From NCBI GenBank assembly GCA_035283185.1, contig DATEUJ010000144.1, positions 17,185 to 81,184 of the forward strand: DNA of 64,000 nucleotides, written 5' to 3'. Within the stretch, counting starts at the first letter, position 1, and each line of letters begins with the position of its first letter. A program made the position numbers and the translations under genes. This DNA comes from Anaerolineae bacterium (GTDB lineage Bacteria > Chloroflexota > Anaerolineae > Fen-1058). Under the pieces are notes generated by a model. That model searched no databases and was not told the origin of the DNA. It saw only the letters and a program-made list of their open reading frames with translations. Shown in pieces: positions 8,836-57,484 of this stretch.

Positions 8836-10236
8836 TTATTCGCCCGTCTTAATGGCCAGTTCCGCACCGATCGCCTTCGCTGCGCTCTTCACCGCCTCGC
8901 TCAGTGTCGGGTGGATGTGAATAGACTTGGCAATGGGTTCGGCCGTACCGTGGTTGTACATGGCCGTCACCACCTGATGGATCAGAATGTCGGCGTGCGC
9001 GCCGAGGATGTGCGCGCCCAGAATCTCGCCAGTCTTCCCATCGACGACGATTTTGACGAAGCCCTCCGTCTGGCCAATGGCCTTGGCTCGGCCGGTATGG
9101 GCGAATAGGTGCTTGCCAACCTTTACCTCGTGCCCGGCCTCGCGCGCCTCACGCTCGGTCAGACCCACGCTGGCCACTGCCGGTTCGGAGAATACCGCGC
9201 GCGGCACGACCCGATAGTCGATTTTCTTCTTCAGCCCACGCACGGCATTGAGTGCAGCAATCGGCCCGTCGTAGGTGGCTCGATGGGTGAACATTGCCCC
9301 GCCGTTCGCGTCGCCAATCGACCAGATGTTGGGCGCAGTGGTTAGCAGCGTATCGCCCACCCTGATGACTCCGCCCTCCAATTCCACACCAGCCTGATCC
9401 AAGCCAAGTTCGTCCACCCGGGACACGCGTCCACCAGCGAACAGGATGACGTCAGCTCTGAAGCGCCGCTCTTCGCCACCGATCTGTGCGACAACGACCT
9501 TCTCGCCTCCCTCGCGCTCAGCGCGTAAAACCGGCGCGCTCGTGTACAGGTCAGTCCCTTCGGCACGCAGCACCTCGGCCAGAGCGGCGGAAACTTCCTC
9601 GTCCTCGTGAGGCATGACGCGCCGTGCACGACCGAGCATCGTCACCTTCGTCCCGAACCGCGCATACATCTGCGCGAACTCTACGCCGATATAACCTGCG
9701 CCGATCACGATCATAGACGCCGGCAGCCGTTCCAACTTGAGCGCCTCATCGTTAGTGATGTACCCGACCTCCGCAAGGCCGGGAATGTCCACCGTCGCCG
9801 GGTGCGCTCCGACGGCCAATATCGTCTTCTCAGCCGTAATTTGTCGGCCATCCACGCGGATGTCCACGGGGGAAGTCAGTTCCGCATGGCCCGTGAAGAA
9901 GGTGATGTGCTTGTTCCTTCGGAGTGCAGTGTAAATGCCGTCGATGATACTTTTGACGATGGCGTCTTTGCGAGCGACGGCAGCCGCGAGGTCGAAGGTG
10001 ACGGCATCGGGGTTCACGCCGCGCACGCCGAACGCGTGCGCGCGGTGTTTGACCAGATGCATGACTTCGGCAGACCTTAACAAGGTCTTGGTGGGTATGC
10101 ACCCTTCGTTCACTCAGGTGCCGCCGACCTCGTGCATTTCGATCAACGCGACCTTCGCACCGAGGTTGGCGGCCATGTGGGCGGCGGGCAGTCCACCCTG
10201 CCCACCCCCGATGACGGCGATGTCGAATTTATCCAT
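8836..10236 (-). CDS. class I pyridine nucleotide-disulfide oxidoreductase (Lpd/glutathione-reductase-like) with in-frame TGA (putative Sec41) at the first redox Cys
   Basis: ATG at 10236 with GAGGAG RBS. Translation is [15 protein letters not shown]...EVGGT-TGA(10116..10114)-VNEGCIPTK. The canonical motif is GGTCxNxGCxPSK. The C-terminus has the HPTLSE His-Glu dyad, like Lpd/GR and unlike MerA. No C-terminal CC pair and no HMA domain. Confidence 0.7.
10072..10104 (-). promoter_or_regulatory. candidate SECIS hairpins downstream of TGA 10116..10114
   Basis: On the minus strand: GGGT-GCAT-ACCC starts 12 nt after the TGA, and AGACCTT-GTT-AAGGTCT starts 28 nt after it. Confidence 0.4.
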
Positions 10237-10250
10237 AGGGGAGTCTCCTC

Positions 10251-10313
10251 TGGCTGATAGCAGATAGCGGATGGCTGATAGCGCATGGCCGACAGCTATT
10301 GGCTATCAGCCAT
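10251..10313. repeat. GGCTGATAGC motif cluster (two direct copies plus one inverted copy) upstream of the flavoprotein gene
   Basis: tggctgatagc at 10251-10261. atggctgatagc at 10271-10282. gctatcagccat at 10302-10313 is the perfect reverse complement of the second copy. Confidence 0.7.
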
Positions 10314-10330
10314 TTGCCATCGGCCGTCTG

Positions 10331-10579
10331 CTACTGCGCCGGCTCGGTGAGTTTGATTAGCTCGAGACAGACGTGCCCCACGCCGGTCTCAAAGGAATTG
10401 TCACAATACGGGCACACTGCTCCGAATGATTCTTTACCGGCTGCCACGTAGCAGCATCCAACGGGGCAGATGTGAATCGTCCTTGGACCAAGCAGTTCAG
10501 TGCAATAGGGACATGTCTTCTGAAGCGGAGTCTTGCGATTGGTCGCCATGCCTCGCTTTGGGGATGATGCGCGTTTCAT
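10331..10579 (-). CDS. small Cys-rich zinc-ribbon-like protein
   Basis: ATG at 10579 with GGAAGGAG RBS. 82 aa with 9 Cys, including two CPYC motifs. Lower GC than the surroundings. Confidence 0.5.
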   Translation of the reverse strand: MKRASSPKRGMATNRKTPLQKTCPYCTELLGPRTIHICPVGCCYVAAGKESFGAVCPYCDNSFETGVGHVCLELIKLTEPAQ

Positions 10580-10681
10580 GTGATGCTCCTTCCACAAGCC
10601 AACAAAGACTTCCTCAGCCGATTTCGCTTTGGAAGCCTTTGCTGGCCGTGGTGTGAACGCAGAAGATGTGTGCCGCTCGAA

Positions 10682-56248: not shown

Positions 56249-56271
56249 GTCGTCACCCCTATGGATAGACC

Positions 56272-56572
56272 ATGAAACGGCTTGCCGACTTGCTCGAAGC
56301 CTCTGCCGCACTCCACCGCCATCTCTGCCCGCGTCAGGTGCTCGGCGTGCGTATCGGGCTGGCGGGCGCAGCCGCATTACAACTCGACGTCTCACGCAAG
56401 GACAAGCGGCTGCTGGTCATTAGAGATCATCAACGAGCGCGAGGTCCGGCGCGATGGCGCGACCCTGTGCCGCGCTTGCGCGGGCGAGGGCTATTATGAC
56501 CTGTTGGCGAGTTCGTTCCCGTGCCTGTCGTTGCGAGAACCGAACTGGCCCGAGAGGCTGTCAGTCGGGTGA
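56272..56572 (+). pseudogene. FmdE-domain protein remnant (internal deletion plus frameshift)
   Basis: The N-terminus LHRHLCPRQVLGVRIGLAGA...DKRLLVI is FmdE-like. The C-terminal Zn-ribbon-like part EIINEREVRRDGATLCRACAGEGYY is in a different frame. The central domain is missing. Confidence 0.45.
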
Positions 56573-56611
56573 AAAGACTTCCGAAGTCTCTGGGATTTCG
56601 GAAGTCTTTTC
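56571..56611 (+). terminator. perfect 15-bp hairpin GAAAAGACTTCCGAA / TTCGGAAGTCTTTTC
   Basis: Read directly, with an 11-nt loop. The 3' arm ends in a T-rich run. Lies at the end of the aio block. Confidence 0.5.
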
Positions 56612-56660
56612 GTCAGGGTAAGATTTGACCCGGAACGCGCGTCTACAAGATAGCGGGCCA

Positions 56661-56954
56661 ATGCTCCAGATATATCCTGTCGGGGCACACAACCCGCACA
56701 AGAGAAGGACTCACACTGTGCGTCCGATCTGGCAGATCCTCACCCGCACAACGCATTCTCCAAACAGTGTGCTGACCTGTGAGGAATGCTTTGCGGCGCT
56801 GGAGTATCTGGCCGAGTTGATGGATGCAGATGTTGATCCGAAAGACCTGTGGCAGACCGCCCAACGCCATCTGGCGCGCTGTCCCGACTGCCGGGAGCAT
56901 CACGCAAAGCGTATCCGCGAACTGGAGTCGCGGCTGGCCGGAGGTCGAGGCTGA
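56661..56954 (+). CDS. orphan ZAS-type (zf-HC2) anti-sigma-like protein
   Basis: RHLARCPDCREHH matches H-x3-C-x2-C. An additional CEEC lies upstream. The stop overlaps the start of the next gene (TGATG). Confidence 0.55.
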   Translation: MLQIYPVGAHNPHKRRTHTVRPIWQILTRTTHSPNSVLTCEECFAALEYLAELMDADVDPKDLWQTAQRHLARCPDCREHHAKRIRELESRLAGGRG

Positions 56955-57484
56955 TGCTTCGCGTCGGTCAACCGGCACCCGACTTGCGCCTGCCAGGTCT
57001 GGACGGATCACCGATCGCACTGTCGGATTATCGAGGCCGACCGGTCGTGCTCGTCTTTCTGCGCCATCTCGGCTGACTGCCCTGCCGCGAGCACGCGATG
57101 CAGTTGCATCGCCGACGAGACGCAGTGCTGATGCTGAATGGCGAGGTATTGCTGATCACCTTTTCCAGCGCGGAGCAGGCGCGTCGCTGGCGGGACGAGA
57201 CTGGGATCGACTTTCCGTTGTTGCTCGATGCGAATCGGGCTGTCTATCGCGCTTATGGTCTACGGTCCTCGATCTGGCGCGTGTGGCAGCCTAAGGTGCT
57301 GGCGTATTACGCGCGAGCCTTGTTGCAAGGGCAGCGCTGGCGCGGCATCCGCGACGATCCGCACCAGTTGGGCGGCGATTTCGTTGTCGATGCCGCCGGG
57401 ATGTTGCGCTTCGCGCACCGGAGCGAAGACCCGACTGATCGCCCGGCAGTTGATTCGCTCTTGTCGGTACTTCGACAGATGTGA
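56954..57484 (+). CDS. peroxiredoxin-like 2 / AhpC-TSA_2 family protein with in-frame TGA (putative Sec41)
   Basis: MLRVGQPAPDLRL...GRPVVLVFLRHLG-TGA(57074..57076)-LPCREHAMQL... in the same frame. The family motif is F(L/V)RxxGCxxCR. Confidence 0.72.
57095..57112 (+). promoter_or_regulatory. candidate SECIS hairpin GCGATG-CAGTTG-CATCGC
   Basis: The palindrome gcgatgcagttgcatcgc starts 18 nt after TGA 57074..57076. Confidence 0.45.

Follow-up and report, generated by a model that had tools for sequence, protein, structure and literature searches.

Does an in-frame TGA that falls on the codon of a catalytic cysteine end a gene, or does it specify an amino acid? This question is raised five times by a 64-kb window (the whole stretch of DNA analysed here, 64,000 nucleotides, 62.4% G+C) on contig DATEUJ010000144.1 of an Anaerolineae bacterium (GCA_035283185.1; Chloroflexota), in which five genes, here numbered 1 to 5, are each interrupted by a single TGA and continue in the same frame beyond it. 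A first-pass annotation, made from the sequence alone, had proposed that all five TGAs are selenocysteine (Sec, U) codons. Our analysis leads to the same answer: the TGAs very probably encode Sec, each gene being translated as one polypeptide by means of a bacterial selenocysteine insertion sequence (SECIS), which would give this Anaerolineales population at least five selenoprotein genes of five families within 64 kb. Gene 1, a flavoprotein gene in a mer (mercury resistance) operon, is the part worth following, the rest being mostly ordinary for the selenoprotein field.

In-frame TGA codons at catalytic cysteine positions

The five genes and their interrupting codons are as follows.

8836..10236, minus strand: gene 1, Lpd-like class-I flavoprotein disulfide reductase, 466 codons, likely start ATG 10236
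10114..10116, minus strand: predicted UGA(Sec) of gene 1, codon 41, EVGGT-U-VNEGC
22594..23076, minus strand: gene 2, putative OsmC-like selenoprotein, 160 codons, likely start ATG 23076
22873..22875, minus strand: predicted UGA(Sec) of gene 2, codon 67, AAAG-U-LTGTFGG
45312..46385, plus strand: gene 3, putative DUF3179 lipoprotein-type selenoprotein, 357 codons, likely start ATG 45312, then lipobox LTAC
45741..45743, plus strand: predicted UGA(Sec) of gene 3, VTW-U-PLC
46573..47274, plus strand: gene 4, putative deiodinase-like thioredoxin-fold selenoprotein, start ATG 46573, chosen to match the orthologue in the syntenic relative L023
46780..46782, plus strand: predicted UGA(Sec) of gene 4, FGSFT-U-PYC
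56954..57484, plus strand: gene 5, putative SelL-related / Prx-like2 redox selenoprotein, 176 codons, likely start ATG 56954
57074..57076, plus strand: predicted UGA(Sec) of gene 5, FLRHLG-U-LPCR

The likely starts were placed by aligning the genes with their homologues. All five TGAs lie where the first-pass annotation had put them, and the domain identities that it gave for the five genes agree with our profile matches. Each TGA joins two open segments in one frame, translation through it yields full-length domain matches, and the predicted Sec site always falls inside a recognisable redox domain, at a position where full-length homologues have a conserved or invariant Cys.

The product of gene 1 carries the Pfam domains Pyr_redox_2, Pyr_redox and Pyr_redox_dim and scores 438 bits against TIGR01350 lipoamide_DH (cutoff 408.8; C substituted for U in scoring); its best PDB matches are dihydrolipoyl dehydrogenases (6uzi) and it has the His-Glu dyad (HIHPTLSE). 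Of the two Cys of the CxxxxC redox centre, U replaces the first (U-x4-C), and Cys stands at this position in the closest full-length homologue (P0031, EVGGT-C-LNEGC) and in two distant homologues, encoded by TGC and TGT. Gene 2 matches PF02566 (47.3 bits, cutoff 27.5), with Cys at the U position in nine of ten full-length homologues, the paralogue in the window among them. This paralogue and a second Cys-encoding one, both of which had been pointed out in the first-pass annotation, are indeed present (OsmC at 33119..33550, with GAC; DUF3179 at 57488..58732, with VTFCPLC). Gene 3 scores 222 bits against PF11376, and its U-P-L-C fits the UxxC/T pattern, homologues having CPLC with an invariant Cys. 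Gene 5 has AhpC-TSA, Redoxin and AhpC-TSA_2 domains and matches NF040769 (SelL-related redox protein; 166 bits, cutoff 120); its U-L-P-C fits U/CxxC, and while close homologues are truncated at the TGA, full-length ones (43-55% identity) have an invariant Cys. The domains of gene 4 are Redoxin, T4_deiodinase and AhpC-TSA (31.4 bits against PF00837, cutoff 27). It is ruled out as an NF038285 equivalog (53.8 vs a cutoff of 250), and its U matches the position of Sec in deiodinase 3 (Dio3, crystallised as Cys in 4TR3) when the two are aligned. Alignment with full-length relatives, and with deiodinase 3 for gene 4, thus bears out the proposed placing of each TGA.

Conservation of the TGA codons and of the sequences around them

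For gene 1 we compared the DNA of 12 orthologues from metagenome-assembled genomes (MAGs), of which one is from Marinimicrobia, one from Calditrichota and the others from Anaerolineales/Anaerolineae. The Sec codon is TGA at all 12 loci and is flanked by conserved residues, at pairwise protein identities of 60-89% among the 13 sequences that include the window; GCA_008501685.1 is one carrier of the flavoprotein. Nearly all of the best 120 database homologues of gene 1 (62-89% identity) are 399-425 aa long and cut at a common point, which would be expected if gene callers stopped at the common TGA. The same pattern recurs elsewhere in the set, as most close database homologues of genes 1, 3 and 5 are truncated exactly at the TGA. 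More than 110 of the best 120 homologues of gene 3 are C-terminal fragments of ~207 aa, and the database representatives of gene 2 are a mixture of full-length forms and fragments that begin just after the TGA.

The other four TGAs are conserved as well. Among evaluable metagenomic relatives of gene 2 (57-84% identity), 78 of 79 have TGA at the Sec codon, with TTLDYVVAAAAG upstream and LTGTFGGALEAR downstream of it, both conserved. The TGA of gene 3 is found together with an identical hairpin in L022 (part of a complete Anaerolineaceae genome) and in L023, and a DUF3179 Sec gene is carried by CP070822.1 (GCA_020344355.1). The syntenic L023 orthologue of gene 4 (87% identity) likewise has both the TGA and an identical hairpin, and L024 keeps the TGA of gene 5 at 56% identity. 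Relatives of all five genes retain the TGA, with coding sequence conserved on both sides of it, in line with what the first-pass annotation had expected of true recoding sites. Those of its refuting conditions that could be put to the test all turned out in favour of Sec.

Hairpins downstream of the TGA codons

A perfect stem lies 3' of each TGA.

10055..10104, minus strand: putative bacterial SECIS of gene 1, apical stem AGACCUU-GUU-AAGGUCU at 10072..10088 with a lower stem beneath it
22837..22853, minus strand: putative bacterial SECIS of gene 2, GCGCGCU-GGA-AGCGCGC
45757..45776, plus strand: putative bacterial SECIS of gene 3, CCGGUC-UCGUGCAC-GACCGG
46793..46809, plus strand: putative bacterial SECIS of gene 4, GGAUGGC-GGC-GCCAUCC
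57095..57112, plus strand: putative bacterial SECIS of gene 5, GCGAUGC-AGUU-GCAUCGC

From gene 1 to gene 5 the stems measure 7, 7, 6, 7 and 7 bp and begin 25, 19, 13, 10 and 18 nt after the TGA, and a G is present in the apical loop of all five. The first-pass annotation had described them as perfect and GC-rich; the pairing is perfect at all five sites, but the stem of gene 1 has only three G-C pairs out of seven. Over the same range of distances, the background frequency of a perfect stem in the window is 8.8% for at least 6 bp and 2.65% for at least 7 bp, as against 5/5 and 4/5 of the TGA sites. In a position-specific stem test, whose parameters were partly picked after the hairpins had been seen, this enrichment was significant relative to the window's own background.

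The hairpins also leave a trace in the variation among relatives. Across the 20 codons after the TGA of gene 1, synonymous diversity falls to 0.26, compared with 0.57 in the rest of the gene (Mann-Whitney p = 3.7e-7), and the consensus fold of the orthologues places an apical stem of 6 bp, capped by GUU in every sequence and with two compensatory pairs, above a lower stem. The stem codons of gene 2 are 91-97% fixed, whereas nearby Gly/Ala codons are 34-61% fixed, and its stem positions are paired in 67-71 of 71 sequences, with changes between G-C and G-U and between U-A and U-G. At gene 5, the stem of L024 keeps its pairing through one C-to-U change (G-C to G-U). These comparisons indicate that the hairpins are conserved as RNA, through compensatory and wobble changes and with synonymous variation suppressed.

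According to the mechanism that we propose, the stem-loop 10-25 nt after the UGA would act as a bacterial SECIS and recruit SelB with Sec-tRNA(Sec), Sec being inserted in place of termination; in all five proteins it would replace the nucleophilic Cys of a thiol-based redox centre.

At the gene 3 locus, a UbiA-type prenyltransferase gene (44358..45293, plus strand) precedes gene 3 in the same frame, and the two form one fused open reading frame (ORF) in L023 (4699..6624), which suggests that UbiA and DUF3179 are functionally linked. A further DUF3179 paralogue of the Sec type is present in L023 (8839..9924, IAVTW-U-PLCF), where a paralogue of the Cys type adjoins it. The stem of this Sec-type paralogue is a different one of 7 bp (CGGGAAU-CGUGU-AUUCCCG) at an unchanged offset.

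Selenocysteine and the competing readings of UGA

Recoding to Sec, which the first-pass annotation had called the simplest reading, is supported by the conserved TGAs, the conserved flanking coding sequence, the conserved hairpins and the Cys-containing homologues. SelB/SECIS-dependent decoding and the actual incorporation of selenium are steps that we infer from these comparative data.

Several results weigh against this reading or parts of it. A search of the window, its long ORFs included, and of both contig flanks, ~80 kb of contig ERZ27254809:k141_3442119 in all, turned up neither selA, selB nor selD, nor any tRNA-Sec gene. The folding energy of the whole 60-nt segment after each TGA does not differ from that of shuffles (z = -1.25 to +0.33), and Rfam, at its gathering threshold, matched tRNAs only, with no family matched at the hairpins. 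Covariation in the apical stem of gene 1 comes from a single orthologue, L005, all other sequences being invariant there. Gene 4, confirmed in one close relative only, is the thinnest of the five cases. The U-L-T-G-T motif (T at +2 and +4) that gene 2 has in common with its 78 relatives is not literally the 'UxxT' of the selenoprotein catalogue discussed below. Finally, the link between the flavoprotein and mercury detoxification, to which we return, is drawn solely from gene neighbourhood.

As to the machinery, some Chloroflexi are known to decode Sec and to have a tRNA-Sec, which can be of an unusual 8/4 structure in these bacteria (PMC1794560, PMC5389517); standard finders might miss a tRNA-Sec of this 8/4 type. 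An array of ten tRNA genes (63435..63867, minus strand), adjoined by an HNH endonuclease gene, continues in L107 (12584..14094) and includes a tRNA-Ile (TAT) and no tRNA-Sec.

All of the comparative signals (the conserved TGA, the SECIS-like hairpin and the read-through) are equally compatible with SECIS/SelB-type recoding that inserts Cys by way of a tRNA-Sec-like tRNA charged with Cys, such as Mukai and colleagues reportedly described in a few bacteria. The unusual tRNA-Sec structures reported in Chloroflexi (PMC5389517) would also accord with Cys insertion. We nevertheless regard it as very unlikely, given its rarity and the standing of four of the five families as recognised Sec families. 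Close homologues that encode Cys exist besides, and a costly detour through recoding to arrive at the same residue would make no sense.

Still less probable is that the genes are truly split, the TGA terminating translation and either two separate halves or the C-terminal part only being made. Gene callers have annotated them in this way in hundreds of records, and a GTG or ATG often comes soon after the TGA. However, a split would separate the two residues of the redox motif (U/CxxC, U/CxxxxC) and, in gene 1, would also detach the FAD-binding fold from the remaining enzyme. Moreover, the 40 codons upstream of the gene 1 TGA keep their amino acids while synonymous sites vary freely (0.57-0.62), that is, they are under purifying selection at the protein level. 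The stop is also always TGA, never TAA or TAG, in 12/12 relatives of gene 1 and 78/79 of gene 2, and full-length homologues have Cys in its place.

That the TGAs are nonsense mutations in pseudogenes, or sequencing or assembly errors, is hardly credible, even though the window does hold one likely nonsense lesion (a TAG in a fusion gene of glutaredoxin (Grx) and thioredoxin reductase (TrxR) type) along with gene fragments. Independent assemblies from at least four samples contain contigs that match the window (at least 99.97% identity), and in all four the contig extends across gene 1 and has the TGA there. This comparison, which covers gene 1 only, speaks for that gene against the read-level refutation named in the first-pass annotation. 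In addition, orthologues down to 56-67% identity keep the TGA and both halves, and chance would not have placed all five TGAs on catalytic Cys codons. These comparisons effectively refute the idea.

Nothing but the in-frame TGAs themselves favours a code that reads UGA as sense (Trp or Gly). This reading is just as hard to believe and is refuted by the stop usage of the window, since TGA is the ordinary stop of 20 of the 28 Pfam-supported genes of the window, so that the code is not reassigned, and in-frame TGAs occur at Cys positions only, with no other read-through sites.

A sixth convincing read-through site was not found in the window or in both contig flanks by a retrained codon-usage scan, which we used instead of a GC-frame filter that proved too strict, having missed genes 2 and 3. 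Two candidates of the scan, ABM/HD (7940) and a glucokinase fragment with transketolase (31058), are merely adjacent genes in a shared frame, and the in-frame TGAs at 14646 (MerA/DUF7482) and 45291 (UbiA/DUF3179) are ordinary stops between neighbouring genes.

A putative selenocysteine flavoprotein in mer operons

Gene 1 is the last gene of a mer-type cluster on the same strand.

10331..16326, minus strand: mer-type cluster upstream of gene 1
16326..14644, minus strand: MerA, a genuine one by TIGR02053 (553 bits, cutoff 454)
after MerA in the cluster, minus strand: DUF7482 gene
14005..13781, minus strand: HMA protein
13784..12900, minus strand: 294-aa membrane protein
11815..10682, minus strand: MerB-like protein with a C-terminal extension of ~150 aa that weakly matches DUF3237
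10579..10331, minus strand: Cys-rich ORF of 82 aa (CPYC...ICPVGCC...CPYC...HVC), directly upstream of gene 1

The MerB-like protein scores slightly below the MerB cutoffs (171 vs 193). The 82-aa Cys-rich ORF, which gives sub-threshold zinc-ribbon matches only, lies directly upstream of the flavoprotein gene at six of the 12 orthologue loci and may encode a partner or substrate of the flavoprotein. At all 12 loci mer genes are found near the flavoprotein gene (MerR at 10, MerB at 7, full-length MerA at 6 and MerT at 2-3).

MerA is of the same superfamily as the gene 1 product, which is 40% identical to the cluster's own MerA, and both occur in mer operons with MerR, MerB, MerT and HMA nearby. 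Unlike MerA, however, the gene 1 product has neither an NmerA/HMA domain nor a C-terminal Cys-Cys, and it carries His (HIHPTLSE) where MerA has Tyr (FPYLTNAE). The lack of the terminal CC, the His for Tyr and a TIGR02053 score of 383 against a cutoff of 454 rule it out as MerA, and we do not think that it is a second Hg(II) reductase. With Lpd/E3 and class-I relatives (glutathione reductase, mycothione reductase) it shares the full architecture, the GGT-x-xNxGCxP motif and the His-Glu dyad. It differs from Lpd in that its first redox Cys is replaced by the predicted Sec and in that its gene lies in mer operons, not near 2-oxoacid dehydrogenase or glycine-cleavage genes; mer-type clusters, and not the genomic context of an E3, surround it in the window and at all 12 orthologue loci.

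A flavoprotein known to contain Sec is animal thioredoxin reductase, with its C-terminal GCUG. Among prokaryotes, the catalogued Sec flavoproteins are of the CoA-disulfide-reductase / NADH-oxidase type (UGxP) and of the type III sulfide:quinone reductase type (HxxU) (PMC13188914). Like the gene 1 product, these are FAD/NAD(P)H oxidoreductases with Sec as the substrate-facing redox residue, but they belong to other subfamilies and have Sec elsewhere, whereas gene 1 encodes a class-I enzyme whose predicted Sec belongs to the N-terminal CxxxxC pair next to the flavin. Assignment of gene 1 to the CoA-disulfide-reductase type is ruled out by score (75.8 against TIGR03385, cutoff 578.8) and by its motif, which is not UGxP. 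The Sec-assisted organometallic (SAO) system, with its MerB-like selenoprotein SaoL (PMC13188914), likewise joins selenoproteins and MerB-type organometallic chemistry in one cluster. In contrast to SAO, the MerB here is of the ordinary Cys type and matches MerB models only, without a match to SaoL, the predicted selenoprotein is a flavoprotein reductase, and the flavoprotein clusters of Chloroflexota, Marinimicrobia and Calditrichota are mer operons of the classical kind.

In class-I flavoprotein disulfide reductases, attack on the substrate falls to the first Cys of the pair, the interchange residue. The flavin-adjacent redox pair of gene 1 would accordingly be a selenenylsulfide (U-x4-C) with U at the interchange position, where Sec would be the better nucleophile and leaving group, and the target of the selenolate may be either a disulfide or a thiol-Hg adduct on some partner or carrier, for example MerB or the 82-aa Cys-rich protein. 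Because its orthologues sit in mer operons, our best guess, made from gene neighbourhood and active-site residues, is that the flavoprotein acts as an accessory NAD(P)H-dependent reductase in mercury/organomercurial detoxification.

Directly downstream of gene 1 lies a 253-bp copy of the merA 3' end (8526..8777, minus strand) with the ...KLSCCAG terminus. It matches the true merA end (14641..14892) at 86% identity and seems to be a scar left by recombination within the mer cluster.

Known selenoprotein families and an uncatalogued candidate

Table 1 of PMC13188914, a 2026 catalogue that counts 119 selenoprotein families and subfamilies of prokaryotes, includes OsmC-like, DUF3179 (UxxC/T) and deiodinase-like (UxxC) proteins and also lists a Prx-like thiol:disulfide oxidoreductase (UxxC) and a cd02970 peroxiredoxin-like family; PMC9312934 is a further source for the OsmC-like, DUF3179, deiodinase-like and Prx-like families. 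These have the same Pfam domains as genes 2 to 5 (PF02566, PF11376, PF00837 and PF00578/PF13911, respectively), and genes 2 to 5 share with them the Sec site at the catalytic Cys position and the hairpin after the UGA, with UxxC in genes 3, 4 and 5. The cd02970 entry lists UxxS, whereas gene 5 has UxxC and fits both the 'Prx-like thiol:disulfide oxidoreductase, UxxC' entry and NF040769. Since their families are already in the catalogue, a point that the first-pass annotation had not made, genes 2 to 5 would be new members of known families, and since the UGA-Sec-hairpin mechanism is textbook knowledge and four of the five families are listed, most of the finding is confirmation.

What is less expected is the host. 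The selenoprotein-rich groups named in reviews are Thermodesulfobacteriota, Synergistota and Clostridia, and Chloroflexota are not named among them (PMC13188914, PMC9312934), so that genes 2 to 5, in a member of the Anaerolineales, fall outside these lineages. The largest reported bacterial selenoproteomes have 57-63 genes per genome (PMC13188914), and five in 64 kb is above the genome-wide average that such numbers imply, in keeping with the first-pass remark that the density is unusual. As Chloroflexota go unnamed in the reviews and yet five such genes lie within 64 kb, the selenoproteome of the Anaerolineales may be under-counted.

Gene 1 stands apart, as none of the 119 families of the 2026 catalogue is a class-I flavoprotein disulfide reductase whose N-terminal CxxxxC pair contains Sec, NCBIfam release 20 has no dedicated model for it, and literature searches, the GOS paper included, returned nothing relevant on a Sec-containing Lpd/MerA-type enzyme or on a link between Sec and mer operons. 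We lean, with some reserve, towards the view that the Lpd-like flavoprotein constitutes an uncatalogued selenoprotein family that is dedicated to mer operons and widespread in those of Anaerolineales, Marinimicrobia and Calditrichota. If so, bacterial mercury/organomercurial detoxification would include a selenium-dependent step, and more than 100 database entries, N-truncated and named 'dihydrolipoamide dehydrogenase' or 'FAD-containing oxidoreductase', would be mis-called selenoproteins. A protein common to three phyla would then have been systematically mis-annotated as truncated, and annotation pipelines would need a model for this family. Should the flavoprotein act in mercury handling, it would link two elements with a well-known toxicological antagonism.

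Other features of the window

The five genes do not form one operon. Genes 3 and 4 are adjacent on the same strand, gene 5 follows ~10 kb further on, next to the Cys-type DUF3179 gene, and genes 1 and 2 lie elsewhere in the window. Between genes 4 and 5 there are an arsenite-oxidase-like molybdoenzyme (Rieske_3 + Molybdopterin) and two di-haem cytochrome c peroxidase/MauG genes (53558..56248 and 50532..52918, both plus strand).

A Grx-fused thioredoxin-reductase-like gene (16525..17748, minus strand) has an intact CATC redox motif and is split into 290 + 114 aa by an in-frame TAG at 16878..16876 (...ILQDKVAK-TAG-PNMSVTTNHAV...). The TAG is present in two independent assemblies (L001, L002) and marks either a pseudogene or read-through; the stop being TAG and not TGA, we rejected the gene as a sixth selenoprotein candidate. 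Between a GH15 gene and the transketolase gene, an ORF of 152 aa (30602..31060, plus strand) matches positions 1-103 only of the 314 of Pfam glucokinase and is probably a gene remnant.

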